Of a stretch of DNA of 64,000 nt, positions 12,459 to 49,763 are shown one piece after another. Numbering within the stretch: position 1 is the first letter of the stretch; each line of letters opens with the position of its first letter. The stretch is taken from NCBI GenBank assembly GCA_049287025.1, contig JBAQFA010000009.1:24802-88801 (forward strand). Direction: 5' to 3'. Origin of the DNA: Candidatus Magasanikiibacteriota bacterium. Its GTDB lineage: Bacteria; Patescibacteriota; Patescibacteriia; Magasanikbacterales; UBA922. The translations under genes were made by a program, and so were the position numbers. The notes beneath the pieces were generated by a model. The model did not search any database. It saw nothing but the letters and a program-made list of their open reading frames with translations, and was not told where the DNA came from.

Positions 12459-12616
12459 TTAAATCGTAAACTTGACTTATCATATAAAATATAGTATAAA
12501 TGTATGTCCGATAGACTTGTTGTCTGTCGTTTTGGTATATAAGGCAACTTTGCTTTGTTGTTGTGTGTGCTTGAGTGAACAACCATAATCCTTGGATGGG
12601 AGGTGAGACAGGGGAA

Positions 12617-14527: not shown

Positions 14528-14639
14528 AAAATGTTGTAGGAAAAGTTCTACATTTTTCATTATATCTATTTACAATAAATAAGTCAATCTGCTAATCTAA
14601 TGTAGTATATTATCGACATAATTAATTTAAAATAATACT

Positions 14640-21783: not shown

Positions 21784-21808
21784 AAGCGGGCTTAAACCCG
21801 CTTTTTGT
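21784..21808. terminator. Bidirectional terminator between recA and ychF
   Basis: AAAAAGCGGGCTTAAACCCGCTTTTT. Confidence 0.6.
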
Positions 21809-21836
21809 TATGTGATATGTGTCTCGTGTTATGTGT

Positions 21837-22913
21837 TTAAGTCGCCACATGGAAATATACCGTATCACCATCCTTAACAATATAATCTTTTCCTTCCAAT
21901 CTTAATTTTCCAGAAGTTTTGATTCCACTCCAACCACCATGTTCAACAAAATCTTTCCAATCACACACATCAGCTTTGATATAACCTTTTATAAAATCAG
22001 TATGAATCACCCCAGCCGCTTCTGGACCTTTGGCGCCAGACTTCACTGTCCAAGCTCTAGTTTCTGGTTCGCCACTGGTTAAAAATGTGACAAGGTTTAG
22101 TAATTTATAACTTTCAGTAATCAATTTATCCAAACCACTTTTTTCCATACCTAGCTCTTTCATATATTCTTTTAATTCTTCGCCATTCAGATCAGCTAGT
22201 TCTGCTTCCAATTTAGCACAGACAATAATTTGTGGAATACCTTCTTCTATCTGCGGAATTTGGGCATTCAAATTTGAAGTTTCATCTACATTTATTACAT
22301 AGAGCATGGGTTTCATAGTGAGCAAGTGCATGTCTTTCATTATGAGCATCTCATCTTCAGTGTATTCAAGCGCGCGCGCTGGTTTGCCAGCTTCTAGTTG
22401 TTTAAAAACTTTTTCTAAAACATCAATTTCTTTTTGCGCATCTTTCAAAGCTGTCCCCTTGGCGTTCTTTTTCGTTTTATCTAGGCGCTTACTCACAGTT
22501 TGCCAGTCGGCTAGGACTAATTCAAGATTTATTACCCCAGCATCTTCAGTTGGATCTACTTTGCCCGCCACGTGAATAATATTGTTATCAGTAAAATTTC
22601 TTACTACCTGAACAATAGCATCAGTTTCCCGAATGTGAGACAAAAATTGATTACCTAGGCCTTCACCTTCACTAGCGCCTTTGACTAGACCAGCAATATC
22701 ATAAAATTCTATGGCTGTTGGGATAATTTTTTTTGATTTAGAAACTTGAGCCAGTTTTTCCAACCGTTCATCTGGTACCTCAACAATCCCGATATTTGGT
22801 TCAATCGTACAAAAAGGATAATTTTGAGCATCAGCTTGTTTGCTACGAGTGAGAGCGTTGAATAGAGTAGATTTTCCTACATTGGGTAGGCCGACGATTC
22901 CAAGTGATAACAT
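21837..22913 (-). CDS. ychF: Ribosome-binding ATPase YchF
   Basis: G1 motif GLPNVGKST and a TGS domain at the C-terminus. Confidence 0.9.
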   Translation of the reverse strand: MLSLGIVGLPNVGKSTLFNALTRSKQADAQNYPFCTIEPNIGIVEVPDERLEKLAQVSKSKKIIPTAIEFYDIAGLVKGASEGEGLGNQFLSHIRETDAIVQVVRNFTDNNIIHVAGKVDPTEDAGVINLELVLADWQTVSKRLDKTKKNAKGTALKDAQKEIDVLEKVFKQLEAGKPARALEYTEDEMLIMKDMHLLTMKPMLYVINVDETSNLNAQIPQIEEGIPQIIVCAKLEAELADLNGEELKEYMKELGMEKSGLDKLITESYKLLNLVTFLTSGEPETRAWTVKSGAKGPEAAGVIHTDFIKGYIKADVCDWKDFVEHGGWSGIKTSGKLRLEGKDYIVKDGDTVYFHVAT

Positions 22914-23932: not shown

Positions 23933-26299
23933 TTATTTTTCTAAGACGGGGTGTTGGCCAAACTGACCACGTAGAGCCGAGACTATTTGGCCAGTATAAT
24001 CTGGATTTTTCTGAGATTGCTTTCTAAATTTGAGTGATTCTTCAATTACTTTGGTCTTTATTTTCATGGCCTTGGCAGTTTTAATGGTCCACTCGCCTTC
24101 TCCAGAATGAGATACTTTACCACTAATTTTTTCTAAATTAGTACCGTAAGTATGAAAGGCTTCATGGAGCCAACCAACCAGACGGGATTCAATTACACTA
24201 CCCTCATTATATATGTCAGCAATGCGGTGTAGATCTAGTTTATAATCAGACTTTTTTAGAACATTAAATCCCTCGCCAATGGCTTGCATCATGCCATACT
24301 CAATTCCATTGTGAATCATTTTTACAAAGTGGCCAGCACCAGCGCCAGAAAAAAACTGATAACCATTCACTTGAGACATGTCTTTAAAAATTGGTTCACA
24401 ATGTTCAAATAATTTTTTCTCCCCGCCGATCATAATGCAGGCGCCATTTCTCGCTCCACCTGGACCACCCGATACCCCAGCATCGAGAAATTTAATACCC
24501 AGCTTTTTTAATTTATTGGCTCGAACAGTCGTATCTTTAAAATATGAATTACCGCCGTCAATAATGATGTCGCCTTTATCTAATTTTTTTACTATTCCTT
24601 CTTTACCAAACAAAGTCTCATCAATTGGTTTGCCATTGGGAAGCATGAGCCAGATAATGCGTGGGCTAGGTAATTTTTTTATCATGTCTTCTAATGAATA
24701 TACCGCGTTCAAATTTTCTTTGGCCATTTGTCTGGTCACTTCAGCGGTGCGATTATAACCAACTACATACCAACCCTTGTCAATTAATCTTCTGGCAAGA
24801 TTGCCACCCATTTTTCCTAAACCAATAATACCAATGCGTTTATTTAGTTTATGTTTTTCTTCTTCTAGAAAATTTTTCGCAGTTTTCGTAATTTCAAAAG
24901 TATCTGGTTTGTAAGTATGGAGTGGAGTTAAATTATTTTTCCAAGCATTAATAATTGGATCAACCACACGCCACATTTGAGCAATTTCGGCATTTCTCAT
25001 AAACCAAGTTTGATTACCAGCAATAGTGTCATGGAGTAATTTGGCGTATTCTTCTACATAGGGCAATTTGGTTTTATTTTTATGCAACATAAAAACAAAT
25101 TCTCGTTTTTCCAATTGCATATCAAAACCAGGTTTTCTTTGCCAAAATTGAATTTTTATTTCTTGCGTGGGGTGAAGTTTAAAAATTATTTTATTTTGCA
25201 CTGGACCAGCCGGTGGGCAAATGCAGGGTTCTGGGTGGCGGAAAGTGACGACAATTTCTTTTTTCACTTGTCCCATCCGTTTGCCACTTTCAATTGTAAT
25301 GGGTACGCCAGTCCAACGCGGTGAATCAAGTTCGGTCTGCCAACGGAAATATGTTTCCACATTAGAATTTTTATTTACCCCAGTAATATTTTTATAACCA
25401 TCATATTGGGCGCGGAAAGTTTTGGTTTTTATATCTTGCAAGCTAGGTTTAATTAATTGTTTCAAAACTTCTGCCCGAGCATTGCGCACTTCTTTGTCAG
25501 TATAGTTAATTGGATGCTCCATAGTTAAGAGCGCGAGAATAGACAGCAAATGGTTTTGTCCGACATCACGCAAAGCCCCGACACTTTCATAAAACGATCC
25601 TCTGGTTTCTACTCCAATTTCCTCCCACAGTTTCATACTAATTCTTTCAATATGCTTGTTGTTCCAAGCGTTTTCAAATAAGCCATTAGAAAAACGGAAA
25701 TTTAATATTCCCTGAACCATTTCTTTACCAAAATAGTGATCAATTCTATAAATTTGTTCACGTTTAAAAACTGATAAAGTTTTTTCTAATTCTTTGGCAG
25801 AGGCACCATCATCACCAAACGGTTTTTCTACAATCACTCTAGCCCAACCAGTACTGTCATCACAGGGCAGATTTAATTTGGTTTCTTTCAATCCCTTGGC
25901 AATCGGTTTGATCATGGCTGGTGGAACAGCTAAGTAATACAATTTGTTAGCACAAATCCCCCATTGATCCTGAATATTTTGAATGTGGCTTTTTAATTCA
26001 GTATAATCTTGCAATTGGGAAAAATCGCCTTGTTCATAATGAAAGAGTTTTAAAAATTTTTCAATTGGTTGTCGGGTTTTAACAAATTCTTTTTCTTTTA
26101 AAATATTAAAAACATGGGTTCTAAATTCTTCATCACTCATTGCTCGGCGGGCAAATCCTAAGACATCAAAATGAACTGGAAGTTTTTTTTGTTTGTATAA
26201 AAAATATAATGAAGGGACAATTTTTTTTGTCATAAGGTCGCCAGTGGCACCAAAAACAGTAAAAATTGTTGGAACATTATCAAAGTATGGTTGTTTCAT
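23933..26299 (-). CDS. Fused glucose-6-phosphate dehydrogenase (N-terminal) and short-type 6-phosphogluconate dehydrogenase (C-terminal)
   Basis: The N-terminal ~480 aa carry G6PD motifs (GATGDL..K, EKPFG, RIDHYFGKE). The C-terminal ~300 aa carry GIIGLGKMGGNLARRL and a GndA-like decarboxylating 6PGDH domain. This is a single uninterrupted 788-aa ORF. Confidence 0.8.
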   Translation of the reverse strand: MKQPYFDNVPTIFTVFGATGDLMTKKIVPSLYFLYKQKKLPVHFDVLGFARRAMSDEEFRTHVFNILKEKEFVKTRQPIEKFLKLFHYEQGDFSQLQDYTELKSHIQNIQDQWGICANKLYYLAVPPAMIKPIAKGLKETKLNLPCDDSTGWARVIVEKPFGDDGASAKELEKTLSVFKREQIYRIDHYFGKEMVQGILNFRFSNGLFENAWNNKHIERISMKLWEEIGVETRGSFYESVGALRDVGQNHLLSILALLTMEHPINYTDKEVRNARAEVLKQLIKPSLQDIKTKTFRAQYDGYKNITGVNKNSNVETYFRWQTELDSPRWTGVPITIESGKRMGQVKKEIVVTFRHPEPCICPPAGPVQNKIIFKLHPTQEIKIQFWQRKPGFDMQLEKREFVFMLHKNKTKLPYVEEYAKLLHDTIAGNQTWFMRNAEIAQMWRVVDPIINAWKNNLTPLHTYKPDTFEITKTAKNFLEEEKHKLNKRIGIIGLGKMGGNLARRLIDKGWYVVGYNRTAEVTRQMAKENLNAVYSLEDMIKKLPSPRIIWLMLPNGKPIDETLFGKEGIVKKLDKGDIIIDGGNSYFKDTTVRANKLKKLGIKFLDAGVSGGPGGARNGACIMIGGEKKLFEHCEPIFKDMSQVNGYQFFSGAGAGHFVKMIHNGIEYGMMQAIGEGFNVLKKSDYKLDLHRIADIYNEGSVIESRLVGWLHEAFHTYGTNLEKISGKVSHSGEGEWTIKTAKAMKIKTKVIEESLKFRKQSQKNPDYTGQIVSALRGQFGQHPVLEK

Positions 26300-27584: not shown

Positions 27585-27661
27585 GGGCCGTTAGCTCAGC
27601 TGGCTAGAGCGCTTCCATGGCATGGAAGAGGTCGCAGGTTCAATTCCTGTACGGTCCACAA
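27585..27661 (+). tRNA. tRNA-Ala(GGC)
   Basis: The cloverleaf was folded by hand. The anticodon loop is ATGGCAT with the G3:U70 Ala identity pair. The T-loop is GGTTCAATTCC. CCA is not encoded. Confidence 0.75.
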
Positions 27662-28099
27662 TATGAGGGGGTATCTTTACTTTATTAGGAGCTGTAATTG
27701 TAAAAGACCTTTACTATCCACTAAATCACTTTTTATAGTGATTTTTTATTTAGGTTTATATATATTATTGTACGACGCATATATATAGCTTTAATTAGTG
27801 TAATAAAACTAAAATTACTACTTAACTACCTATTTTATCCCCTATTTGTTCTTTGTGGAACAATTTCAGTGAACAGTGGCCAGTATGCAGTATTCATAAA
27901 ATACTAAATTATAAAAAATACGTTAGTTTTATTGTAGACTGAAAATTTGGTGTTGTTGTTCTTGCGATCTGATTTGTTGGGAAGCATATTTATAATTAAT
28001 ATGTTCTATGTGGAACAATTATTTATGGTTTATACACAGATAGTGGCACTTATACACAAAAATATCCACTTTTGTGGATATTTGTATAGGATATTGTAG

Positions 28100-28176
28100 A
28101 CAATAATACAAAATACAATATACACGGAGCAAAATACAAAATCTATGTTGTTGTTTGTATATTGTATTTTGTTTTT
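28100..28176. repeat. Palindromic AT-rich element. A second copy lies at 53548-53628.
   Basis: AATACAAAATACAATATA ... TATATTGTATTTTGTTTTTGTGGAC. Its 24-nt right arm is nearly identical to 53603-53628. Confidence 0.55.
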
Positions 28177-28177
28177 G

Positions 28178-28249
28178 TGGACCTAGGCAGAATCGAACTG
28201 CCGTCTCAGCAATGCGAATGCTATATATTACCACTATACTATAGGCCCG
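28178..28249 (-). tRNA. tRNA-Ala(CGC)
   Basis: Anticodon loop TTCGCAT, G3:U70, T-arm GGCAGTTCGATTCTGCC. Confidence 0.7.
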
Positions 28250-28254
28250 CTTAG

Positions 28255-28326
28255 TGCCCCCAGCATGAATTGAACACACATCTTGTCCTTAGGACGGACC
28301 TGTTCTATCCGTTGAACTATGGGGGC
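28255..28326 (-). tRNA. tRNA-Arg(CCT)
   Basis: Acceptor GCCCCCA/TGGGGGC, anticodon loop GTCCTAA, T-loop TTCAATT. Confidence 0.65.
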
Positions 28327-28373: not shown

Positions 28374-29123
28374 TTATTTTATCTCTGGGCAATGATCCCA
28401 CATAAATTTAAACCAGGTTTTATAGCTAGTGGCCAGTGGACGACTAATATTTACAAAAATGGTAATATCGTCACTAATCTTTGTTATTCCGGCGCCAGTA
28501 AAAGACACAACATGATCACCAAAAATGTCTACCATTGAAGGCGTAGAATATTCTTTAGGTAGGTATTTGTAAGGTTTACCTACGGCTTTTGGTACATGAG
28601 GAGCTTGTTTTAGTACTTCAAAATCAAATAAATGTTTATATTTAATACCTCGACGATCCGCATCAACTAAAAATTTATCCAAAAAGGTATTGAGTCTTGG
28701 GTCGAACCAGGCTCCCTTGGCGCCAATACAATAAACATCTTCTTTAGTAGATAATACATCACGAAGAAAATTTTTAAATCCTTCCAGACCTTTATATATG
28801 TAGGCAGCCTCTAAAACAGGATGTTTTTGGTATTCGTGCATCAAGTGTGGCATTTCTTTTTCTAGCCTAGTACGTTTTTCATCAACCAGTTCCATTAGCT
28901 TGGCTGGTTCCACTGGTTTAAATAAAGTGTCGCCATGCCCAATAACTTGAAACACTAAACCTTTTTCAATTAAGCGATTCATTGAGTCATAAATATTCCG
29001 GCGATGAATTTTACTTTTTTTTGAAATATTAGAAACCGTAGTTTGTTTTTCTTGTAAAAGTGTTTCGTAAATTTTGGCTTCGTTTATTGACAATCCTAGT
29101 TCTGTTAAAATTTGGCTATACAT
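28374..29123 (-). CDS. TrmB-family regulator paralog A. Its C-terminus is divergent or truncated.
   Basis: N-terminus LGLSINEAKIYETLLQEKQTTVSNISKKSKIHRRNIYDSMNRLIEKGLV. The Lys-rich tail seen in paralogs B and C lies after an in-frame TAA stop. The gene is immediately adjacent to tRNA-Arg. Confidence 0.7.
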   Translation of the reverse strand: MYSQILTELGLSINEAKIYETLLQEKQTTVSNISKKSKIHRRNIYDSMNRLIEKGLVFQVIGHGDTLFKPVEPAKLMELVDEKRTRLEKEMPHLMHEYQKHPVLEAAYIYKGLEGFKNFLRDVLSTKEDVYCIGAKGAWFDPRLNTFLDKFLVDADRRGIKYKHLFDFEVLKQAPHVPKAVGKPYKYLPKEYSTPSMVDIFGDHVVSFTGAGITKISDDITIFVNISRPLATSYKTWFKFMWDHCPEIK

Positions 29124-29139
29124 AGCAAAAATATATTAA

Positions 29140-29170
29140 AGTGGTGTGAAGCCACACCACGTGGTGGTAT
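29140..29170. promoter_or_regulatory. Perfect palindrome in the TrmB-A/cassette-1 divergent region. It is a candidate operator.
   Basis: TGGTGTG aagc CACACCA. Confidence 0.4.
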
Positions 29171-29296
29171 TTGCCACTCTTTATATATTATATATAATGC
29201 CTTGTTACTTTGCAAGCCGCTGCTGTGCATAAAAGCTAGATGGTGAGCGGGTAATAAGGGGTTCTTTGATAAAACAATTTGAGAAGCGAGGGACAA

Positions 29297-29479
29297 ATGG
29301 AAACTGGAGAAAGGCAAGATGAAGTTACTTGTTTGAAGAAAGAGTTGGAACATGACAAAGATGAGATATATTATTTGCGTTTGGCTATCCTTAATTTGAA
29401 TAGGAAAAAGGAGTATGTCAGAATGCAAAGGATGTTCCGTGGTGGAGAAGCTGTTCTCGACATGTGGGCGCGCTATTAA
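29297..29479 (+). CDS. GC-rich cassette 1a: small helical hypothetical protein
   Basis: About 61 aa, GC-rich, same strand as 1b. Confidence 0.35.
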   Translation: METGERQDEVTCLKKELEHDKDEIYYLRLAILNLNRKKEYVRMQRMFRGGEAVLDMWARY

Positions 29480-29515
29480 CACGGGAGAGGGCTGAAAAAG
29501 CCTAAGGAGGACCTC

Positions 29516-30103
29516 ATGCGTACAATGTTAGTCGCGTTGCTGTCGCTGGTGCTGTTTTCAAGTATTGCTCAGGCCGAAACCTACAACACCAGGTTGCTCC
29601 TGCACGGTCACAAGACCGTCGGTGAGGGATTCGGAGTCGCGGGTTGGGTGATTGCGCCCAACATCACAAGCGTACCGAACAAGTGGGTAACCCTCGTCGG
29701 CCCGTGCTACGATGGACAGGGGTGGGGTGTAGAATTGTTGGCAGGAGCGGTTGTTTCTGGTGGCGAGAGCAAGTTTCTTGTAGATGTCAGAATAACGTTC
29801 ACTCCAAAATTCTTCGGCATCCCCTTGAACACCTGGCACAACTTCCAGTGGATTCGAACCGGAGGCTCTGGCACGGGTTACTGGTATGGACAGGTTGACT
29901 GGGTGTTGCCACTCGGACTTGGACTTCTCGGTACAGAAACCGAGAACACGTTCAACGTGAGTGGCAATGACTGGTCAGTCGCGCCTCACGTCGTGATCTC
30001 TTTCGGTGATCACTTCGCGCTAGTGTTCGCTCCACAAGCTCATTTCAATGCACGTGGCTACACTGGCACGCAAGCGTGGGTTCGTACGGTCGTGAGTCAC
30101 TAG
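29516..30103 (+). CDS. GC-rich cassette 1b: secreted beta-rich protein with a signal peptide
   Basis: A strong SD AAGGAGG precedes the ATG. The signal peptide is MRTMLVALLSLVLFSSIAQA. The rest shows alternating hydrophobic Gly/Trp-rich strands, like a small OMP or beta-barrel. The segment is about 60% GC or more. Confidence 0.6.
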   Translation: MRTMLVALLSLVLFSSIAQAETYNTRLLLHGHKTVGEGFGVAGWVIAPNITSVPNKWVTLVGPCYDGQGWGVELLAGAVVSGGESKFLVDVRITFTPKFFGIPLNTWHNFQWIRTGGSGTGYWYGQVDWVLPLGLGLLGTETENTFNVSGNDWSVAPHVVISFGDHFALVFAPQAHFNARGYTGTQAWVRTVVSH

Positions 30104-30175
30104 TCGTTCTTTTATAGGGGGGAGGACTTACTTGAGACTAGTCATCTCACGTGGACCGGCACGTAAAAATCCGGG

Positions 30176-30236
30176 ATTCTAGTTAGTACTAAGTAGATAT
30201 CAAAAAACCACGCCTCATCGGCGGGTTTTTTGTTTA
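30176..30236 (+). terminator. Conserved element T1 (copy a): ATTCTAGTTAGTACTAAGTAGATA box plus an intrinsic terminator
   Basis: AAAAAACCACGCC tcatc GGCGGGTTTTTTGTTT. A near-identical copy lies at 31839-31902. Confidence 0.65.
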
Positions 30237-30254
30237 CTTTGGGTAATTTATGAT

Positions 30255-31049
30255 TTATTTTTTCTTTTTGGCAAGTTGAGAGAGTGGTACGGCCGTATTC
30301 CAAGCTAGTTCATATAGCGCTTTTAGAATTTTTACCAAAGATGTACTTTCTATCATTACACCAATTTTGTGTGGTTTATGAGTGACGAAGACAATTTTTG
30401 ATTCAAAAATATTAATTTCACCAAAAAAGTCCTCAATTCCTGGTAGTTGATTAGGTTTAAGCCATTTAATATGAGTATAAGTCATTGATCCTTTATAATT
30501 CGTCATCCAAGTTCTAGCTGTAGGTGTATCCAAAGCAATAATACGTTCATGAATTTTACGTTTACTGCGTTCACGATTATAGCCTTCACCCCAAGTTTTG
30601 AATTCCGGCCAACTCCAGCCTTCAAAATCGGCAATAGAAAGAATTTCGGTTTTTGAATCTAAGCTCTCCCAATAAATATTTTTTAAACCCTGGGTACCTT
30701 CTTGATATTTGATAACTGGCTTTTCGGCAAACTTATAAATCGAAAATAATTTTGGTAAAACTTTTTCTACATTTAATAATTTATCTTCCCATTGCTTTTT
30801 TTTGTTTTTAATATGTTGAACCAGACGCCCTGGATTTTCCGAAGTATAAATCATTTTCGATCCTTTGCCAGTCGCGCGATCTACCAAACCATACCAACCT
30901 AACTTTTCCAAAGCATAATAACCAAGCGTTCGGTTGATACCAGCTTTTTTGGTTATCTCGGCTACAGTAGCAGGACCAAGTTCGAGCAAGGCTAAATATA
31001 CTTTGCCTTCGGTTTCATCTAAACCTAATTGACTGATTAAATCTTTCAT
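30255..31049 (-). CDS. TrmB-family regulator paralog B
   Basis: N-terminus LGLDETEGKVYLALLELGPATVAEITKKAGINRTLGYYALEKLGWYGLV. The C-terminus is ..ILKALYELAWNTA..LAKKKK. Confidence 0.75.
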   Translation of the reverse strand: MKDLISQLGLDETEGKVYLALLELGPATVAEITKKAGINRTLGYYALEKLGWYGLVDRATGKGSKMIYTSENPGRLVQHIKNKKKQWEDKLLNVEKVLPKLFSIYKFAEKPVIKYQEGTQGLKNIYWESLDSKTEILSIADFEGWSWPEFKTWGEGYNRERSKRKIHERIIALDTPTARTWMTNYKGSMTYTHIKWLKPNQLPGIEDFFGEINIFESKIVFVTHKPHKIGVMIESTSLVKILKALYELAWNTAVPLSQLAKKKK

Positions 31050-31164
31050 GTTTTTATTCTACTATATATTTGGAAATGTGTCAAATCTATTTAACAGAAA
31101 ATTATTTATATAGCAAAATACTTTATAATTAGCCAAATATTAATAATTAACTAATAAAACAATA

Positions 31165-31193
31165 TTGACAGTTATTGTAAAATGTGGAATAAT
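31165..31193 (+). promoter_or_regulatory. Sigma70 promoter TTGACA-17-AATAAT for cassette 2. Palindromes lie downstream.
   Basis: The hexamers and spacing fit sigma70. GTTCTAGAAtgaaaaTTCTgGAAC and GAGTGTctgaACACTC lie between the promoter and the SD. Confidence 0.5.
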
Positions 31194-31301
31194 AAGTAGT
31201 TCTAGAATGAAAATTCTGGAACCAAATTGATTGGGAGTGTCTGAACACTCTGTATATATGGTCTGGCGTTCTTTACACACGTGCTAGTTGGAGGGAACAT
31301 C

Positions 31302-31727
31302 ATGAAAAGGTGCATCAAGGCTCCGGGAATTAACGCTTTCAGTGGCGAGGGTGAAGTGGGGAAGTTAGAAGATGTCCCCGGAAAACAAGGTTGCCTTCCA
31401 TTTGATCCTAGTCCGGCCGTAGGGGGTTGGATGAAGGACGACAATTGTAAAGTGGAGGCACCACCAGAGGGGTGCACGCTCGAAGTGCCCGAAACGATCC
31501 TATGCCCCAATGGAAAAAACATCCCAGCTGGAAAGTACAAGGTGGGAAAACTGCCTGATGACAAGATTCTGCATCGCTATCATGATCACGTTCTGCCCCT
31601 CACCGATGAGAAGGGGGTCACCCGGCATTATTGCATTGAAAGTTCCGGTAGGCATGTCGACTGGTCGGGATGCGTCTGCATCTTGATTCGTGTGGAGACG
31701 CGCGAAGAGCGACTGCTGATTCAGTAG
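31302..31727 (+). CDS. GC-rich cassette 2: Cys-rich hypothetical protein
   Basis: SD GGAGGG. About 141 aa with about 11 Cys. The segment is GC-rich. Confidence 0.5.
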   Translation: MKRCIKAPGINAFSGEGEVGKLEDVPGKQGCLPFDPSPAVGGWMKDDNCKVEAPPEGCTLEVPETILCPNGKNIPAGKYKVGKLPDDKILHRYHDHVLPLTDEKGVTRHYCIESSGRHVDWSGCVCILIRVETREERLLIQ

Positions 31728-31781
31728 CCATAAATTAAGGGGGGCAAGACGTAGTCTGGATTCGTCAACCAGTCCACCTGC

Positions 31782-31808
31782 CGGAGAGGTAGGCGTAGGC
31801 CGGCGCGT
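31782..31808 (+). repeat. Box A, GGCGTAGGCCGGCGCGTGAGCTCGGCA, copy 1
   Basis: This 27-mer appears five times in the window, always 20-60 nt downstream of a GC-rich cassette. Confidence 0.7.
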
Positions 31809-31838
31809 GAGCTCGGCACCGTGCGCCCGACACATTCA

Positions 31839-31902
31839 AAACGGGCAAATTCTAGTTAGTACTAAGTAGATAACAAAAAACCACGCCCTATCAGCGCGGT
31901 TT
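31839..31902 (+). terminator. Conserved element T1 (copy b)
   Basis: ATTCTAGTTAGTACTAAGTAGATAACAAAAAACCACGCC ctatcagc GCGGTTTTTTGTTT. Confidence 0.65.
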
Positions 31903-31928
31903 TTTGTTTGTTTTGAATAATTTATAAA

Positions 31929-32732
31929 TTATTTTTTCTTTTTACTAGTTTTAGCAAGCGGTGTAGCTGTAATCCACGCCAGTTCAAAAATCGCTTTTAA
32001 AATATTAGATAAAGCCGTGCTTTCTATAATTATGCCAATAGGGATTGGTTTCTTGAATAAAGCCATCATTACTTTATTATCATAAATATTAATTTCACCA
32101 CCTAAATCTTTGATAGTTGGTACTTGTTCGGGTTTTATCCAGCGATAATTAATATATTTTTTTGATCCTTGATAATGTTTCATCCAATCTCTTCCTTCGG
32201 GTGTATCTAAAACCAAAACGCGTTCAGAAATTTTTCTTTTACTACGTTCGCGGGTATATTCTTTGCCCCATTTAAAAAGATTAAACTCTGGTGTATACCA
32301 AGCTTGCAAATCCAAGACTGATAAAATTTCTGATTTGGCTTCTAAAGTTTCCCAATAAATATTTTTGGCACCCTCAACACCTTCTTGAAATCTAACGCTG
32401 GGTTTTTCGGCCACGGTATAGAGTAAATAAAAATCTGGCAATTGTGATTCTAATTCTTTTTCTTTTCTTTCCCAAGTATTAATTTTTGATTTTACAAAAT
32501 GTTTTAAATTTTTGGGATCTTTGGCTACAAATTGAATGCGTTTCTTTTGTCCAGAAGAACGATTGACTAGGCCAAACCAACCAAGTTTTTCTAGGGCATG
32601 ATAACAAAGGGTGTGACCAATGCCAGCTTTGCGGGCAATGGCGCTGGCGCCAGAAGGTCCAAGTTGTAAAAGGGCAATATAGACTTTGGCTTCTGTTTCT
32701 TCAAAGCCAATGCTTTTAAGAATTTCTAACAT
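31929..32732 (-). CDS. TrmB-family regulator paralog C
   Basis: N-terminus IGFEETEAKVYIALLQLGPSGASAIARKAGIGHTLCYHALEKLGWFGLV. The C-terminus is ..ILKAIFELAWITA..KKKK. Confidence 0.75.
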   Translation of the reverse strand: MLEILKSIGFEETEAKVYIALLQLGPSGASAIARKAGIGHTLCYHALEKLGWFGLVNRSSGQKKRIQFVAKDPKNLKHFVKSKINTWERKEKELESQLPDFYLLYTVAEKPSVRFQEGVEGAKNIYWETLEAKSEILSVLDLQAWYTPEFNLFKWGKEYTRERSKRKISERVLVLDTPEGRDWMKHYQGSKKYINYRWIKPEQVPTIKDLGGEINIYDNKVMMALFKKPIPIGIIIESTALSNILKAIFELAWITATPLAKTSKKKK

Positions 32733-32865
32733 AGAATTTTATTTTAGAATTTATTAGATATATTTATTATAACACAAAAATAAATTTATTTCAATATCAA
32801 ATTGAAAATAATTACTAGATTGTAAATTTTTATTTAAAATAAGCCAAAAATGGTTTATTTATTTT

Positions 32866-32895
32866 AAATTGAGTATTGACATACTCCATAATCTA
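32866..32895 (+). promoter_or_regulatory. Sigma70 promoter for the cassette 3-5 array
   Basis: TTGACA, a 17-18 bp spacer, then cATAATt. Confidence 0.5.
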
Positions 32896-32896
32896 A

Positions 32897-32963
32897 TGCA
32901 TAATTACTTGTTCTGACGATCGAGGATTGGCCTTGAGAGTTGGACGCTAACTGGGAGGGCATC
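32897..32963 (+). promoter_or_regulatory. Conserved cassette leader, CTTGTTCTGACGATCGAGGATTGGCCTTGAGAGTTGGACG, with an SD
   Basis: The same leader, 34 of 39 nt identical, follows the minus-strand array promoter at 48712-48660. Diverged copies precede cassettes 4 and 7. Confidence 0.65.
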
Positions 32964-33311
32964 ATGGCCGAAGAGCACGAGGTACGGTGTGATAACTGCG
33001 CCCACCACCACGTAGGAAGCGGGGGTTGTTTCGGCAAAGTAGAGAGCAGGTTCCCCATGTACGATTTTCATAGAGGAGTAAAATACTGCATGTGGGGGGG
33101 GACCCCCAGCCGAATTGTGACCTTTTCTAGATTGAAGGGGTGCCCGCTGGGTGTGGAGTTTGTGCCACTCCGCTGGTGTGGTACCTGTGGCAACTTGGTC
33201 CAAACGGACCAAGGGTGTGCTCACCGGTTGGAGGGTTGCGAGGACCCCAGCTACAGGTGCTGGAAGATTCACCCCGACCTCAAGGAGGGTATGAGACAAC
33301 AGTACCTCTAG
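32964..33311 (+). CDS. GC-rich cassette 3: Cys/His-rich hypothetical protein
   Basis: SD GGGAGG. About 115 aa with CxxC pairs (CDNC, CGTC). Confidence 0.5.
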   Translation: MAEEHEVRCDNCAHHHVGSGGCFGKVESRFPMYDFHRGVKYCMWGGTPSRIVTFSRLKGCPLGVEFVPLRWCGTCGNLVQTDQGCAHRLEGCEDPSYRCWKIHPDLKEGMRQQYL

Positions 33312-33334
33312 ACTACCCACCTATGGGTTAAACA

Positions 33335-33480
33335 GGCGTAGGCCGACGCGTGAGCTCGGCATTCCATTTTTGTCCAAAATATTATTTTTTGCATAAAGAT
33401 GGAGGCGCTCTTTAAAAACAAACAATCCGCACTGGTGGTGTTGGTTGAAGAGATATAGTTCTGACTTAACGGAGGCTAGA
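33335..33480 (+). repeat. Inter-cassette element R, copy 1: box A, hairpin 1, box C, hairpin 2, leader-like with SD
   Basis: Box A spans 33335-33361. Hairpin 1 is CCATTTTTG..CATAAAGATGG at 33364-33402. Box C is GCGCTCTTTAAAAACAAACAA. Hairpin 2 is CaCTGGTGGTGttG. It is more than 85% identical to copy 2 at 34177-34339. Confidence 0.7.
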
Positions 33481-34149
33481 ATGGGATACGACCCAAACCA
33501 AATGGCCCAAAGGTATTTGAGGGTCGACTGGGCCGACGTGAAGGGCTATGCCGCTTACGCGGTAGAGTCCACGTTCGGGGACCAAGTACCACCACCCATA
33601 AAAAGGAGACTCGAGGTATTGGACGGTATAAGGGACAAGGAAGGTCCCGAAGCCGCCTGTCTCGAGGCAGCAAGGATCGAATGTGAATGCCAAGTCGTTC
33701 AGGAGAAAAGAACTGAACGACGGCAGTGGAGAACGGGAGACGACCCATACAAATATGGGTCTTCGTTCTCTTCGAAGTTTGTCATCATAGATTATAATGG
33801 TGAAAAAAGATTCTACATCGCTCATAATTGGCATATGCAGGCCGTTTTCGTTTTCGCCAAAATTCTGGTGGATAGAAATAAAAAAGTCGATTTTCACGTT
33901 CTGGGTGGGGGGTGGTTCCGTGCTAATCATCCCCTAACTGTTGGCGGTTTTAGCGGTGATTTTAGCTCGTTCAAAATCTCTGACTTGAGTGAGGCGTTGG
34001 GTGGGCTTGAATTCACCGACAAAGATCCCGGTGATTGGCGCACGAATTCCATGCGTGCCACCCATATTGATTGGGCTTTTATCGAAAAAGCCCGTGACTC
34101 CTCTGAGAAATACAGGGAGGTATGGAAACGGATCTTTGAGGAGGAATAA
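33481..34149 (+). CDS. GC-rich cassette 4: hypothetical protein
   Basis: SD GGAGG 7 nt upstream of the ATG (MGYDPNQ). About 222 aa, GC-rich, no recognised domain. Confidence 0.5.
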   Translation: MGYDPNQMAQRYLRVDWADVKGYAAYAVESTFGDQVPPPIKRRLEVLDGIRDKEGPEAACLEAARIECECQVVQEKRTERRQWRTGDDPYKYGSSFSSKFVIIDYNGEKRFYIAHNWHMQAVFVFAKILVDRNKKVDFHVLGGGWFRANHPLTVGGFSGDFSSFKISDLSEALGGLEFTDKDPGDWRTNSMRATHIDWAFIEKARDSSEKYREVWKRIFEEE

Positions 34150-34176
34150 TAGACGTAATCTGATTTCGTCAATCAG

Positions 34177-34339
34177 CGTAGGCCGGCGCGTTAGCTCGGC
34201 ATTCCATCTTTGTATAAAAATAATTTTATATAAAGATGGTTGTCGCTCTTTAAAAACAAACAACTAACACTGGTGGTGTTGGTTGGTGATATATAAAAAG
34301 GACTGGTGGCGGACACAACCCTTGGAGAAGGAGTTGAAA
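34177..34339 (+). repeat. Inter-cassette element R, copy 2
   Basis: Box A spans 34177-34202. Hairpin 1 is the perfect palindrome CCATCTTTGTATAAAAATAATTTTATATAAAGATGG at 34205-34240. Box C, hairpin 2 (CAACtAACACtggtgGTGTTgGTTG) and the SD GAAGGAG follow. Confidence 0.7.
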
Positions 34340-34759
34340 ATGAGTACTGTCAAGATACTCATCATCGACGACGGTGATGAGAAAGTCGATCGACTGAAAG
34401 GTTATGATCGACTTGGCCACCTCCATGGTGTGGAGGTGGTACGCCGATGGAATTTTAATTCGGCTCTTAAGGAAGGGCCGTACGCGTTTAATGATTTGGA
34501 GCAAACAAAGTTTGACGTGATTATTTTGGACTTTACACTGCCAATGGACAGATTCGGTCATGAGATCTTGGATAAAATTAGACACAGTCCCAGGTTTATT
34601 ATTAACGAAAGAACGGTAGTAATTGGCATTTCCACAGAGTGGAAACGTCTATTACAATATGATTTCGGTTTGAATCTTGCGATCTACAAGGAGGAAACGA
34701 TGGCTGACGAACTGGAAACAGCCATCAAGTCCTTCGTCGCCACTGGCAAAGTCAAATAA
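34340..34759 (+). CDS. GC-rich cassette 5: orphan CheY-like receiver-domain protein
   Basis: VKILIIDDGDEKVDRL...FDVIILDFTLPMDRFGHEILDKIR...T...K fits a receiver fold with an acidic pocket and a phospho-acceptor Asp. There is no output domain and no partner kinase nearby. Confidence 0.55.
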   Translation: MSTVKILIIDDGDEKVDRLKGYDRLGHLHGVEVVRRWNFNSALKEGPYAFNDLEQTKFDVIILDFTLPMDRFGHEILDKIRHSPRFIINERTVVIGISTEWKRLLQYDFGLNLAIYKEETMADELETAIKSFVATGKVK

Positions 34760-34799
34760 TTTGGGGAGGGAAAGACGAAGCTTGGGATTTGTCACCCAA

Positions 34800-34890
34800 C
34801 GTAGGCCGGCGCGTGAGCTCGGCAATCTCCTTTTTCGCGAAAGAAAGAGCAAAAAAGATCCAGTAAAACTGGGCTTTTTTGTTTGTGGAT
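34800..34890 (+). terminator. Box A (copy 4) followed by an intrinsic terminator. This is the end of the cassette array.
   Basis: CGTAGGCCGGCGCGTGAGCTCGGCA, then AAAACTGGGCTTTTTTGTTTG. Confidence 0.6.
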
Positions 34891-34897
34891 AAAATAG

Positions 34898-34926
34898 TTG
34901 ACAATGTGTCTAATATCGTGTATAGT
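34898..34926 (+). promoter_or_regulatory. Sigma70 promoter TTGACA-17-TATAGT
   Basis: Consensus hexamers upstream of the 34960 gene. Confidence 0.5.
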
Positions 34927-34959
34927 ATATAATATATTATAAACTATATACTATAAACT

Positions 34960-35460
34960 ATGAAAACAGACACTACTGACAAAATTTTAGAGTATATTAA
35001 AGAAAAAGGACAGGTTAAACCAAAAGATATAATTAATTATATTGGTTTTGGTGCGCCTGCTGTTTTTAGACAATTAAAAAAACTCATAAGTGAAGGTAAG
35101 ATAGAAAAAAGTGGCACTCCACCAATGGTTTATTATCATTTTCCGATTGACATAAAAGATATAGAGGTTAACGAAAAGAAAATTTTTGATATAAAAATAA
35201 ATTTAAAAGAATTTGGTATTCATCTTTCAGATAGAGAATCAGCCAAAAGATCGTTATTGTTTATTAAGATGAGGTATAAGAAAATTATTGATAATGTCAA
35301 TAAAATTGAAATTAATTTTGAGGATATAAAAGTACTAGGACCTGGCTGGGCTGACGAATTTATTTCTAATTTATCAAAAGAGTATCCAGGAAAGATAGTT
35401 TTGTTGCCTAGTAATAATGCTAGCATAAAAGCTTCGTTACAATTTATTAATATAAAATAA
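34960..35460 (+). CDS. Hypothetical wHTH protein with a possible STAS-like C-terminal domain
   Basis: 166 aa, AT-rich with native-like composition. The N-terminus is a winged-helix-like segment (ILEYIKEKGQVKPKDIINYIG). Confidence 0.35.
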   Translation: MKTDTTDKILEYIKEKGQVKPKDIINYIGFGAPAVFRQLKKLISEGKIEKSGTPPMVYYHFPIDIKDIEVNEKKIFDIKINLKEFGIHLSDRESAKRSLLFIKMRYKKIIDNVNKIEINFEDIKVLGPGWADEFISNLSKEYPGKIVLLPSNNASIKASLQFINIK

Positions 35461-35484
35461 TTTAACATAATTAATTGTTATTTT

Positions 35485-35799
35485 ATGAGCATTGTTTTTC
35501 TTGATGATGATGTGGAAAATTTTATTTATAGTCTAGAAAATAAAACAAAAGCTAAGGTTTTGCGAACGTTGGATTTGCTAGAAGAGTTTGGTTATAATCT
35601 GGGCATGCCACATACAAAAAAGATTAAAAATAATCTTTTTGAATTGAGAGTATTGGGTAGAAATCAGGTGCGATTATTTTATACATTTTTAAAACCAAAT
35701 ATAATTGTTTTGTGTGGCTTTAGAAAGAAGACTCAGAAAATTCCTAGTCATGAATTGGAGAAAGCCCTGCATAAATTAAAGTTGCTTGACAAGATATAA
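35485..35799 (+). CDS. higB: Type II toxin, RelE/HigB-like (Gp49/DUF891 type)
   Basis: 104 aa. ..LFELRV..RLFYTF..IVLCGFRKKTQKIPSHELEKA is typical of phage-derived HigB-like killers. An HTH antitoxin gene lies immediately downstream. Confidence 0.6.
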   Translation: MSIVFLDDDVENFIYSLENKTKAKVLRTLDLLEEFGYNLGMPHTKKIKNNLFELRVLGRNQVRLFYTFLKPNIIVLCGFRKKTQKIPSHELEKALHKLKLLDKI

Positions 35800-35822
35800 C
35801 ATATATGTTATATTATAAATGT

Positions 35823-36095
35823 ATGAAAAATTACAATAAAATTAAATCAGAAATATTAAAAGACCCTAAGTTCAAAAAAGTCTATGACGATCTTGAGCCA
35901 GAATTTGAATTGGCTCGGCAAATTATTAAAAAGCGTTTGGAATTAGGTTGGTCTCAGTCAGAATTGGCTAGAAAAATGGGTACCAAGCAGTCGGCTATTG
36001 CCAGGTTGGAGTCTGGCGGATATAATCCAAGTATGGCTTTTTTGCAAAAAACAGTTAAGGCATTAAAGGCCGATTTACAGATAATTATTAGTTAA
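35823..36095 (+). CDS. higA: HTH XRE-family antitoxin, HigA-like
   Basis: ..RLELGWSQSELARKMGTKQSAIARLESG.. is an XRE HTH. The gene is about 90 aa and positioned downstream of its toxin, as in higBA. Confidence 0.6.
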   Translation: MKNYNKIKSEILKDPKFKKVYDDLEPEFELARQIIKKRLELGWSQSELARKMGTKQSAIARLESGGYNPSMAFLQKTVKALKADLQIIIS

Positions 36096-47656: not shown

Positions 47657-47677
47657 CGTTTGTCGACAAGTCGAGAT

Positions 47678-47704
47678 GCCGAGCTCACGCGCCGGCCTAC
47701 GCCT
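47678..47704 (-). repeat. Box A copy 5, on the minus strand, downstream of cassette 7
   Basis: The reverse complement reads GGCGTAGGCCGGCGCGTGAGCTCGGCA. A GTCGAC..GTCGAG mini-hairpin sits next to it. Confidence 0.7.
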
Positions 47705-48255: not shown

Positions 48256-48370
48256 TTGTCCAACTTTCGAGGTACATCCTCGATTGTCAGAACTTCCTCC
48301 ATCTTTATACAAAAAATATTTTGGACAAAGATGGAAGGCCCGGCGCTTTGTTGACGCGCGGCCGGGCGAA
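48256..48370 (-). repeat. Inter-cassette element on the minus strand: diverged box A, hairpin 1, leader-like
   Basis: In reverse complement it reads ..GCCCGGCCGCGCGTCAAC.. (diverged box A), then CCATCTTTGTCCAAAATATTTTTTGTATAAAGATGG (hairpin 1), then TTCTGACAATCGAGGATGTACCTCGAAAGTTGGACAAC (leader-like). Confidence 0.65.
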
Positions 48371-48974: not shown

Positions 48975-49763
48975 ATGGAAAAAAATAATTTAGAAAAATT
49001 AATAGATTTGGGTCTACAAGAAAATGAAGCCAAAATATATTTGGCTTTGTTGGAATTGGGAAAAGGCAATGTGACCGAAATTAGTCGGCGCGCAGGATTG
49101 AACCGGACGACGGGTTATGATATTTTGGAACGTCTTGGTTTACATGGTATGGTGAACCGCGCCAGAGTGGGTAGTAAAAAAATTATTTATGTGGCCGAAC
49201 CGCCATCACATTTGCGTCAGTACTTGGAAGACAAAAAACGCGCCATGGAAAGACGGATGGAAGAATTAAATGATTTGTTGCCAGATTTGCAATCACTTTA
49301 TAAAACTGATATTAAACCAGTTATAAAATTTGCCGAAGGGAAAAGTGAAATGCAAAAATTGTATTTGAATGTTTTGGATGCGAAGAGTGAAGTTTATTCA
49401 ATTCTTAATTTAAAAGGTTATGCCGAAGTTTTTGATGAACTGGGTGCTTATCAATCCAAAGAACGACATAAAAAAGGCATAAAAGAAAAAGTTTTGGCTA
49501 TAAAAAATGATACCGCTCTGTGGTGGTATAATAAAACTTATAAAAATAAAACTGCCAAGGATAAAAAGTTAACCGAATATCGCTGGCTAGAAGATGCGGA
49601 AAAGTATTCTACCGCCGGAGAAGTAAATATTTTTGATGATAAAGTAATTGGTGTATTATCCAAACCAAGTGAAAATGTGGCATTTGAAATTCAATCACAG
49701 ACATTTGCGGATTTTTTGAAATTAGTTTTTGAAATGGCGTGGAAGAATAGTGAACAAAAATAA
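48975..49763 (+). CDS. TrmB-family regulator paralog D
   Basis: N-terminus LGLQENEAKIYLALLELGKGNVTEISRRAGLNRTTGYDILERLGLHGMV. The C-terminus is ..FLKLVFEMAWKNS. It is divergent from cassettes 6-7. Confidence 0.75.
   Translation: MEKNNLEKLIDLGLQENEAKIYLALLELGKGNVTEISRRAGLNRTTGYDILERLGLHGMVNRARVGSKKIIYVAEPPSHLRQYLEDKKRAMERRMEELNDLLPDLQSLYKTDIKPVIKFAEGKSEMQKLYLNVLDAKSEVYSILNLKGYAEVFDELGAYQSKERHKKGIKEKVLAIKNDTALWWYNKTYKNKTAKDKKLTEYRWLEDAEKYSTAGEVNIFDDKVIGVLSKPSENVAFEIQSQTFADFLKLVFEMAWKNSEQK

Follow-up and report, generated by a model that had tools for sequence, protein, structure and literature searches.

The DNA analysed here is a stretch of 64,000 nucleotides (the window) of chromosomal DNA from a Candidatus Magasanikiibacteriota metagenome-assembled genome (contig JBAQFA010000009.1, assembly GCA_049287025.1), and our subject is a family of short, foldable repeats that accompanies a set of unusually GC-rich genes within it. 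The window as a whole has a GC content of 0.36, and its genes include dnaA, dnaN, recA, ftsK, polA and a membrane pyrophosphatase gene, together with eight tRNAs. Five GC-rich islands are set into this background, at 12.55-13.75, 29.4-30.25, 31.25-31.9, 32.85-34.5 and 47.65-48.7 kb, and they hold open reading frames (ORFs) with Shine-Dalgarno sequences which we refer to as cassettes C0, C1a/C1, C2, C3-C4-C5 and, on the minus strand, C6-C7. With the exception of C1a, a short upstream ORF (GC 0.39; GC at third codon positions (GC3) 0.43), the cassette ORFs have GC contents of 0.43-0.60 and GC3 values of 0.49-0.68, compared with a GC3 of 0.25-0.30 for host genes. C0 (12617-13588) encodes an orphan protein of 323 amino acids (aa) with 60% GC and has its own promoter, C1 lies at 29516-30103, and C2 (31302-31727, +) forms a single-cassette unit. 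The three cassettes of the longest array are C3 (32964-33311, +; 115 aa, Cys-rich, GC 0.56, GC3 0.68), C4 (33481-34149, +; 222 aa, GC 0.49, an orphan) and C5 (34340-34759, +; 139 aa), and a two-cassette unit is formed by C6 (48652-48386, -) followed by C7 (48228-47785, -).

In NCBI, the cassette proteins correspond to entries whose locus tags begin with WAV48_. A search of 5.8 billion clusters gave nothing homologous to C4; in a set of 1.8 billion cluster representatives C3 has a single true homologue (the rest of the hits being repeat-protein noise), and C2 has a single relative (68%). Searches of the cassette proteins against Pfam returned only a zinc-ribbon match just under the cut-off and a weak, sub-threshold receiver-domain match, the latter in C5 (Response_reg, E=3e-4, under the curated cut-off), and those against PHROGs and PADLOC gave no meaningful match, with C5 and C6 marginal to families of unknown function. 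An AlphaFold2 model of C4, computed without an alignment, has a mean predicted local distance difference test (pLDDT) score of 46.6. Three tRNA genes, tRNA-Ala(GGC), tRNA-Ala(CGC) and tRNA-Arg(CCT), adjoin the cassette array (27585-28326); the codons that they read are G/C-ending or rare and are enriched in the GC-rich cassettes, and the tRNA cluster beside the array is also found in the related genome UBA11710 and at the related locus L005.

Four genes for winged-helix proteins of the TrmB family (Pfam PF01978, E 1e-13 to 1e-16) are each divergent from a GC-rich unit, at 28374-29123(-), 30255-31049(-), 31929-32732(-) and 48975-49763(+), and the protein encoded at 31929-32732 is present too in GCA_049304355.1. 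C0 alone faces its TrmB gene, the fifth (13796-14560(-)), in convergent orientation, all other units being divergent from TrmB. Promoters that match 11 of 12 consensus positions precede C1, C2, C3 and C6, and in all four of them the first G of the leader falls 6 nt past the -10 hexamer. The C3-C4-C5 operon has one promoter before C3 (32876-32904, +; sigma-70-type, TTGACA-17-CATAAT, divergent from the TrmB gene at 31929-32732) and one terminator past C5, with no strong promoter or terminator at the junctions within the operon. The unit of C2 (31165-31912, +) opens with a promoter at 31165-31193, and that of C6-C7 (47618-48749, -) with a promoter at 48749-48721. We infer that the TrmB proteins control the units beside them.

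Behind the cassettes lies a conserved 27-nt sequence, box A (GGCGTAGGCCGGCGCGTGAGCTCGGCA), which occurs five times in the window when up to two mismatches are allowed: at 31792-31818, 33335-33361, 34175-34201 and 34798-34824 on the plus strand and at 47677-47703 on the minus strand. Shuffled sequences predict no copies at all, and each of the five is located 3' of a GC-rich ORF and on that ORF's strand. A preliminary description of this DNA had listed the same five copies, all of which are real, although the first starts at 31792 and not at 31782. Its statement that every GC-rich cassette is followed by box A does not hold, given that C0 and C1 lack it, and the distance from stop codon to box A, put there at 20-60 nt, measures 23-81 nt. 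C0 has a multi-hairpin 3' region of its own that differs from those of the box A cassettes (within 12470-13750); at the same place after the pyrophosphatase gene, the related locus L003 (3250-4900) carries a TrmB gene and another cassette with a box D hairpin, a type I hairpin and box A.

When the 64 kb were searched, filters off, with a covariance model built on box A, the hits were exactly those five copies and nothing else. Beyond the window the model finds nine further copies at the related loci L003, L007, L010 (the genome UBA11710), L023 and L026, once more all behind cassettes, and no others across about 140 kb of related loci. All 14 copies are 3' of an ORF, in the sense orientation and inside a promoter-to-terminator unit, and in the sequence searched the repeat is confined to cassettes and specific to their modules, as had been proposed, which is not the pattern of a genome-wide repeat. 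Broader scans for box A gave one related genome (UBA11710) among genome contigs and, in metagenomes, three true loci plus four chance matches in GC-rich DNA. The diverged copy noted previously at 48336-48370 is also present, past C6 (48367-48338, -): the sequence of its stem is another one, but the architecture of box A (stem, bulged C, GC/GC, loop) is preserved, and the covariance model misses it.

Box A forms the middle of a longer 3' element that begins 0-30 nt past the stop codon. Its opening hairpin is of one of two types, type I being GACG..CUGG..CGUC..CCAG with two overlapping stems (S1 and S2), which would form either a small pseudoknot or alternative folds, and type II being YYURU-GGGUUAA-AYARR. 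This is followed by a single-stranded CGUAG, then by the box A hairpin, GCCGR-C-GC-[GUGA or GUUA]-GC-YCGGC, which in its GUGA-loop form has 7 bp and a bulged C, and directly after it by a third hairpin. In the 3' element of C3, a type II hairpin (33320-33336) lies directly 5' of box A, whose hairpin spans 33342-33360 with a GUGA loop; that of C4 starts with type I (34152-34176; S1 GACG/CGUC, S2 CUGA/UCAG), and its box A hairpin (34182-34200) has a GUUA loop. The element that ends the operon behind C5 (34774-34885) consists of S1/S2, box A, a hairpin CTCCTTTTTCGCGAAAGAAAGAG at 34827-34849, an A-run and an intrinsic terminator at 34857-34885. Behind C2, S1/S2 (31748-31772) and box A are followed by a box D hairpin (31821-31848), a further hairpin (31850-31872) and a bidirectional terminator (31874-31912), and behind C7 the order on the minus strand is box D (47750-47724), type II hairpin (47718-47702), box A, hairpin (47676-47654) and terminator (47646-47618).

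The identity of the third hairpin depends on what comes next. Where a second cassette follows, it is a long AU-rich hairpin, the AT-rich palindrome (ATpal), found at 33364-33402 between C3 and C4, at 34204-34239 between C4 and C5 (16 bp including one G·U) and, on the minus strand, at 48334-48299 between C6 and C7. All three palindromes had been recognised before, the second with a start at 34205 that should read 34204, but they are not perfect, as had been thought: every copy contains a G9·T28 wobble that pairs on the sense strand only. ATpal follows four of four internal box A-type hairpins, three of them in the window and one at L026 (behind a C2 orthologue with a small ORF next), and none of the 11 terminal ones. 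The internal junctions have no terminator, and no U-tract follows ATpal, or the hairpin 2 described below, on the sense strand there, so that neither can be taken for an intrinsic terminator. Terminal copies mostly have CUCCUUUUUCGCGAAAGAAAGAG or UCUCGACUUGUCGACAAACGAGA as their third hairpin (a different one in three), sometimes preceded by the box D hairpin, and an A-run and an intrinsic terminator come after it, as at 34857-34885, 31874-31912 and 47646-47618. A weak promoter, TCGGCA-17/18-AATAAT, that runs across box A and ATpal was rejected as the rationale of the element, as it is found at two junctions and missing from the other two.

On the other side of the cassettes, a stem-loop forms in nearly all predicted leaders, and its first base is one of nucleotides 1-3 of the predicted transcript. 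Leader A (GTTCTGAC..CGAGG) is present in three copies against none expected by chance, at 32910-32946 before C3 and, on the minus strand, at 48715-48680 before C6 and 48293-48258 before C7. That of C3 lies in the 5' untranslated region, begins at the predicted transcription start and has an outer stem UCUGAC/GUUGGA around a hairpin UCGAGG/CCUUGA, and the leader of C2 likewise carries a hairpin at its 5' end (31199-31222). Leader B consists of an A-rich, single-stranded box C and hairpin 2. What comes after ATpal differs between the junctions, being leader A for C7, leader B alone for C5 (34244-34285), and for C4 leader B (33406-33447, with no U-tract after it on the plus strand) followed by a truncated leader A (33458-33480) in which GTTCTGAC at 33458-33465 is succeeded by a Shine-Dalgarno GGAGG. 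At L026, box C and hairpin 2 stand before an ORF without any upstream box A or ATpal, and a hairpin 2 variant follows a promoter there; because of this arrangement we assign them to the leader of the downstream cassette and not to the 3' end of the upstream one. The same observation led us to drop the idea that they are the remnant of a bidirectional terminator left by a deleted TrmB gene.

The preliminary description had joined box A, palindrome, box C, second hairpin and a TTCTGAC..CGAGG leader into a single repeat of about 120 bp. The parts do exist, box C with hairpin 2 at two of the three junctions and the TTCTGAC leader at the three sites of leader A, but the former pair is missing between C6 and C7 and the latter is absent between C4 and C5 and truncated before C4. 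The repeat is hence not one 120-bp element; the 3' module of an upstream cassette abuts the 5' module of a downstream one.

Two further observations concern the leaders. On the minus strand of both 34244-34285 and 33406-33447, hairpin 2 is followed by TTTGTTTTTAAAG, in the manner of an intrinsic terminator (in the former, hairpin and TTTGTTTTT), and the junctions could on this account stop antisense transcription while passing sense transcription. Six cassette leaders that are unlike in other respects share a motif GTTCTTTACAA (variants GTTCTTTGTAAACAA and GTTCTTTGATAAAAC) 10-25 nt ahead of the Shine-Dalgarno sequence, with sites in the window at 31285, 29264 and 48250(-) and others in leaders of L010 and L023; the motif resembles the TGTTCTTTGTGGAACA palindromes near the tRNAs and may be a site of regulator binding or translation control.

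Comparison of the copies suggests that it is the transcribed strand whose folding has been maintained. In the four copies of type I, 60 of 60 pair cells are standard pairs and double-sided changes occur in four pairs (three of the four pairs of S2 and one of S1); only 1 of 500 shuffles reaches the observed score, and sliding the partners against each other lowers pairing to 20-43%. The five copies of type II are paired in 98% of cells, with double changes in three of five stem pairs, and the fifth pair of box A varies among copies between G·U, G-C and A-U. In the L023 copy of leader A, the inner stem has changed from CGAGG/CCUCG to GGAGA/UCUCC and the outer stem is perfect (UCUGAC/GUCAGA). G·U wobbles recur on the sense strand, at G9·U28 in all three ATpal copies and also in box A, the C3 leader and hairpin 2, and each would be an A·C mismatch on the other strand. 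When 11 segments were folded, the sense strand folded better in seven, equally well in two and worse in two. The modules also exceed the level of identity expected under neutrality: between the window and its relatives the TrmB genes are 65% identical at third codon positions (dS about 0.7-1.2, or 0.9-1.15 for the TrmB genes), so that synonymous sites are close to saturation, compared with 87-95% for leader A and 87-92% for the 3' element in those same genomes; the flanks are constrained. Helices kept by paired substitutions, G·U pairs on the sense strand and the high identity of the flanks all point to a transcribed RNA structure, for which we regard the evidence as good but not conclusive, the sample being small and its sequences related.

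The genes between these flanks differ from genome to genome. In the window, the slot that extends from the TrmB gene at 31929-32732 to the gene for RmuC holds C3-C4-C5. The corresponding slot of L007 and L005 holds a single unrelated Cys-rich ORF, C8 (BLASTP against the window ORF, E=0.15), in flanks that are 90% (TrmB), about 87% (promoter and leader) and 91% (3' element) identical. UBA11710 has C3h there, which is 48% identical to C3; L023 has C9, an unrelated ORF of 84 aa with a GC3 of 0.81, next to a TrmB that is 91% identical to that of UBA11710; and L026 has yet another ORF. At L025 a C3-like ORF is followed after 36 nt by a C5-like ORF (30% identical to C5), and in view of this operon without C4 we consider C4 and one junction to be an insertion in the window. 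TrmB identity across the slot genomes is 77-91%. Between the window and L007, homologous sequence ends directly past GTTRGAC and is picked up again from the type II hairpin onwards. The number and order of modules between the tRNA cluster and rmuC vary across genomes, and the set of 3' modules behind orthologous C2 cassettes is not the same in the window, at L023 and at L026. Orthologous cassettes also accumulate changes where they stand, with a dN/dS of about 0.3, and TrmB 30255 is 96% identical to its UBA11710 orthologue, whilst the linked C2 proteins are 33% identical. With orthologous TrmB slots of five related genomes holding unrelated ORFs between a conserved leader and box A, we take cassette exchange to be real, and the idea of discrete, exchanged cassettes that underlay the preliminary description is supported. 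The conserved flanks coincide with the breakpoints of replacement, and on the simplest reading they serve as short homology arms as a by-product and not as their primary function.

Similar arrangements occur at a greater distance. In other Patescibacteria (L014 6900-8000, L018 3300-5000, L024 3000-3450 and L025 1500-2400), TrmB homologues that are 54-74% identical (57% at L014, 54% at L018) lie divergently to orphan operons of high GC content (0.46-0.61 against about 0.37-0.42 around them), which have hairpin leaders on the 5' side and several hairpins in their 3' regions. None of these four operons has box A, the end sequences of L014 and L018 are unrelated, and the pairing of TrmB with a GC-rich orphan operon was not seen in the remaining sampled lineages. 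The pairing thus appears to span more lineages than the box A family does.

On balance we think it probable, though by no means assured, that the repeats are transcribed and folded untranslated-region modules which bound lineage-specific GC-rich expression cassettes and act in intercistronic processing or stabilisation. Each unit would be read from a strong host-type promoter divergent from a TrmB-family gene, giving an RNA that begins with a stem-loop at its extreme 5' end (leader A, leader B or variants); primary 5' ends are predicted at the G of GTTCTGAC or GTTCTAGA, 6 nt past the -10 hexamer. The RNA would end in a stack of hairpins, of type I or II, box A and a further hairpin, to which the end of a unit adds the A-run and terminator. 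At an internal junction the long AU-rich hairpin would take the place of the third hairpin and terminator, with the next leader directly after it, and as the junction has no U-tract, RNA polymerase would read through. An endonuclease may then cut between the two blocks, RNase III on the AU-rich stem or an enzyme of RNase Y/E type in box C, and would leave an upstream mRNA that ends in protective 3' hairpins and a downstream mRNA that starts with a protective 5' stem-loop. Genes for RNase Y and PNPase are found in related loci of the Candidate Phyla Radiation (CPR).

Such a mechanism would be a variant of known untranslated-region and intercistronic hairpin systems. The RNase III sites of the phage T7 early region and the RNase Y processing of cggR-gapA in B. 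subtilis are examples of comparable intercistronic processing. In the cip-cel operon, for which selective RNA processing and stabilisation (SRPS) has been demonstrated by experiment, intergenic stem-loops are cleavage signals and stabilise the processed transcripts at both ends (PMC10311766). The modules here resemble that system in that the hairpins lie in the intergenic regions of a co-transcribed operon, have no U-tract, let transcription go on and, if cleaved, would leave an upstream RNA protected by a 3' hairpin and a downstream RNA protected by a 5' stem-loop. The present modules differ in being a repeated sequence family common to unrelated genes at several loci and tied to GC-rich orphan cassettes, with a conserved 27-nt box and a GNRA-type loop, and cleavage here is predicted from the sequence.

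Several points weigh against this interpretation. The covariation is drawn from 4-5 sequences per alignment, taken from closely related genomes, and the shuffles ignore relatedness; single-stranded DNA (ssDNA) would form the same hairpins, G·T being tolerated in DNA, and two of the 11 segments fold better as antisense. An S1/S2 pseudoknot would have very short loops and may be sterically impossible, and the AU-rich stem, at 16-17 bp, is shorter than classical RNase III substrates. Lastly, a function in RNA leaves three things unexplained, namely the GC-richness of the cassettes, the exact start of internal leaders at GTTCTGAC (the base at which transcription of the first cassettes starts) and the presence of unrelated ORFs between identical flanks. 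It is for these three that we keep two DNA-level explanations, to which we return below, at a lower probability.

The preliminary description had likened the repeats to the attC sites of integrons, such as those of Vibrio cholerae (VCR), and had named an RNA element as the alternative. Part of the likeness is sound, since in both cases a repeat stands behind each ORF of a same-orientation array, and the cassettes are mostly orphans of atypical composition in a locus whose content differs between related genomes. In every structural respect that we looked at, membership of the attC family finds no support. Pfam scans that covered about 40 ORFs of the window, though not a further dozen or so small ones, detected no integron integrase or other tyrosine recombinase (an array of attC sites without integrase and attI would be termed a CALIN), and the ORFs scanned included no Y1 transposase (Y1_Tnp, of the type associated with repetitive extragenic palindromic (REP) elements, RAYT) and no reverse transcriptase; the sole recombinase found was a large serine recombinase at 58805-60442. 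A regular-expression search of both strands of the whole window for R''(RYYYAAC)..R'(GTTRRRY) gave eight pairs at 47-167 nt, where attC elements carry complementary core sites at the two ends of 57-141 nt, and none of these pairs had complementarity of 6/7 or better or lay at a junction. Folded as ssDNA, each strand of the three junctions breaks up into a row of 3-4 short hairpins that form independently of one another, unlike the one bipartite stem with extrahelical bases of an attC site. The top strand is at least as stable as the bottom strand, and the wobbles favour the top strand, which corresponds to the mRNA. No ATpal is present after the last cassettes, where an attC would stand. With no integrase among the ORFs scanned, the arrays also lack attI, the R''/L''/L'/R' boxes and the bipartite stem of an integron, comprise only 1-3 cassettes and differ further in that each has its own strong promoter and TrmB-family regulator, that its cassettes carry a conserved 5' leader and that the AU-rich junction hairpin is missing past the last cassette. 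The RNA alternative fares better, drawing on the sense orientation of the modules inside units, on compensatory changes and conservation above neutral, and on the restriction of the AU-rich hairpin to internal junctions and of terminators to terminal copies.

Other known elements were considered too. At the gathering threshold Rfam 15 finds only the eight tRNAs in the window, and a permissive scan of 29100-35000 returns sub-threshold hits at terminators only. CRISPR (clustered regularly interspaced short palindromic) repeats, tRNA-like 3' ends, group II intron domain 5, the initiation of mutagenic homology of diversity-generating retroelements, retrons and the ends of IS200/IS605 elements were rejected on grounds of misfitting spacing, sequence or partner genes. 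Phage morons are autonomous promoter-gene-terminator units of deviating base composition. The present units resemble them in being self-contained, with a sigma-70-type promoter, an intrinsic terminator and a GC content that departs widely from the genes around them, but are chromosomal units among housekeeping genes, outside any prophage context, with a dedicated divergent regulator and untranslated regions common to several units. Viral contigs gave no match beyond chance: box A had no match in the contigs of IMG/VR, and the leader 18-mer had four, all within unrelated coding sequences and in a number expected by chance. The pilin loci of Neisseria have a conserved 3' Sma/Cla repeat flanking variable coding segments. 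The likeness here is to the exchange of variable coding sequence between short conserved flanks that mark the limits of replacement; unlike in Neisseria, no silent donor copies were seen, and the ORFs are mutually unrelated and not variants of one gene.

Of the two DNA-level explanations, one would make the flanks a recombination site of a non-integron kind, in which box A and ATpal at the 3' side and GTTCTGAC at the 5' side are recognised, as folded single-stranded or as double-stranded DNA, by a putative recombinase, transposase or reverse-transcriptase-linked machinery that inserts, excises and exchanges cassettes in TrmB slots. It would account for the unrelated ORFs that orthologous slots hold between conserved leader and box A, for compositionally foreign orphans, for C4 inserted relative to L025 with copies of the junction on both sides, for the exact start of internal leaders at GTTCTGAC at two independent junctions, for an ATpal only where two cassettes join and for a module order that varies between genomes. 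The machinery itself is a difficulty, as scans of the window yielded no gene for a tyrosine recombinase, a Y1 transposase or a reverse transcriptase, and the large serine recombinase, the only one seen, is 24 kb away, beside tRNAs; the core boxes and bipartite stem of attC are missing, no ATpal follows the last or precedes the first cassette as attC and attI would, and the wobbles favour the transcribed strand. TrmB identity, moreover, tracks the family of the first cassette (96% for C2-type, 79% for C3-type), which implies that whole modules are inherited vertically, and orthologous cassettes also diverge in place. We therefore consider such a site improbable. The other explanation, which strikes us as improbable to a like degree, gives the flanks no RNA function of their own, gene conversion keeping them alike and natural transformation with RecA using them as short homology arms for swapping ORFs among members of the population, much as with conserved flanks at other variable loci. 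The abrupt end and resumption of homology between the window and L007 would fit, recA is present in the window, and within one genome, modules that are not orthologous share 87-91% identity over 46-53 nt in their leaders and 3' elements, compared with only 36% for their TrmB genes. Arms of 27-50 nt are, however, near the lower limit for RecA-dependent exchange, and conversion alone predicts neither the compensatory changes, nor the conserved structure of the C6-type copy, nor the strict choice of third hairpin, and leaves the first acquisition of the flanks by foreign ORFs unexplained.

Two further proposals seem to us less plausible again. REP elements and bacterial interspersed mosaic elements (BIME) of enterobacteria, and BOX elements of Streptococcus pneumoniae, are short modular mosaics of palindromes at 3' ends or between operon genes that are transcribed and can stabilise the upstream mRNA. 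Selfish miniature mobile elements of this kind could have accumulated by chance in the intergenic spaces of the cassettes, a proposal that suits the mosaic of palindromes at 3' ends and between operon genes, the reshuffled order of S1/S2, type II, box A, box D and the third hairpin in its three kinds, and the differing 3' modules of orthologous C2 cassettes. REP and BIME are dispersed in both orientations; here five copies in 64 kb are all in cassettes, and 14 of 14 are in the sense direction. The modules occur with a single class of transcription unit, in partnership with a conserved 5' leader, and are absent from the other intergenic regions of the window, which hold a different, AT-rich repeat family. 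Neither target-site duplications nor, in scans of the window, a RAYT-type gene could be seen. Confinement and orientation this strict make selfish repeats very unlikely in our judgement. More doubtful still is the suggestion that the palindromes serve the TrmB paralogues, or some other dimeric regulator, as operators in double-stranded DNA. A TrmB-family gene does stand beside almost every unit, and both the inner stem of leader A (TCGAGG-N5-CCTCGA) and ATpal are palindromic, but these palindromes conserve asymmetric G·T positions, their loops vary and their stems are kept, the elements are found at 3' ends and internal junctions far from promoters, and one leader A serves modules whose TrmB paralogues share only 36% identity. 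It is this strand asymmetry and position that count against operators.

A broader proposal, to which we give a small but real chance, is an undescribed cassette system that works independently of an integrase. TrmB 'expression slots' by the tRNA cluster would capture and exchange foreign GC-rich ORFs, with GTTCTGAC (identical to the transcript start) and box A as the fixed ends, and ATpal at joints, serving as recognition sites for recombination or RNA-templated insertion and doing more than stabilise mRNA, and L014 and L018 would represent the same phenomenon with other ends.

We found neither the repeat nor the cassette design described in Rfam or the searchable literature. New here are the family of repeats, the link between it and the GC-rich orphan cassettes next to TrmB genes, and the turnover of genes between conserved ends. 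The locus represents a compact, repeated design for foreign-looking genes, made up of regulator, strong promoter, 5' stem-loop, GC-rich orphan ORF, 3' hairpin stack and terminator or joint. Among close relatives, one gene has time and again taken the place of another between conserved ends, and these ends are better conserved than synonymous sites. CPR bacteria have tiny genomes and are generally credited with little regulatory or mobile complexity, and their post-transcriptional control is, to our knowledge, essentially unstudied. Should the modules prove to act as RNA, box A and its partners would be a new family of structured untranslated-region motifs, and the units would be natural insulated, processable cistrons of use in operon design; should they act as DNA, they would represent a second, integron-independent route to cassette arrays. 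In either case, the hypervariable Cys-rich orphan proteins are candidates for host or phage interaction in episymbiotic bacteria.

A number of other features were recorded in the window. Between tRNA-Ala(GGC) and the pair tRNA-Ala(CGC)/tRNA-Arg(CCT), beside the first TrmB module, a cluster of DnaA-box-like 9-mers (27660-28176) contains TTATACACA twice, an inverted ATATCCAC/GTGGATAT at 28060-28083 and the palindromes TGTTCTTTGTGGAACA and TGTTCTATGTGGAACA; it lies 24 kb from dnaA (2145-3527) and is kept in UBA11710 (also L001, ~5900-6230). The AT-rich repeat family mentioned above, TTTTTGTTATCTG[C/A]TATCTGCAC with related ACACATAACACATA units, occupies the 3' ends of host genes (dnaN, a 179-aa ORF, a Mg-chelatase-like gene and recA) at 695-717, 7060-7082, 6246-6280, 8688-8722 and 21802-21837, and it is this family, rather than box A, that is a candidate host-wide intergenic repeat. 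Directly past the C3-C5 operon, 34960-36095 holds a gene with winged-helix and DUF4325 (STAS-like) domains and a Gp49/HTH (HigB/HigA-like) toxin-antitoxin pair; in UBA11710 the winged helix-turn-helix (wHTH) and DUF4325 parts are split in two genes, and at L007 neither is present and rmuC follows the cassette directly. The large serine recombinase (Resolvase, Recombinase and Zn_ribbon_recom domains) ends in or next to a tRNA-Pro/Phe/Ala cluster (60423-60698) and may mark the edge of an integrated element. A fusion of glucose-6-phosphate dehydrogenase and 6-phosphogluconate dehydrogenase (788 aa) is encoded at 23933-26299(-), and the same fusion occurs in UBA11710 (L010 13388-15754). Finally, 49909-53469 encodes a protein of 1186 aa with five lamin-tail domains, a PKD domain and an OB-fold, and the DNA repeats D3, D6 and D8 reflect its repeated domains.

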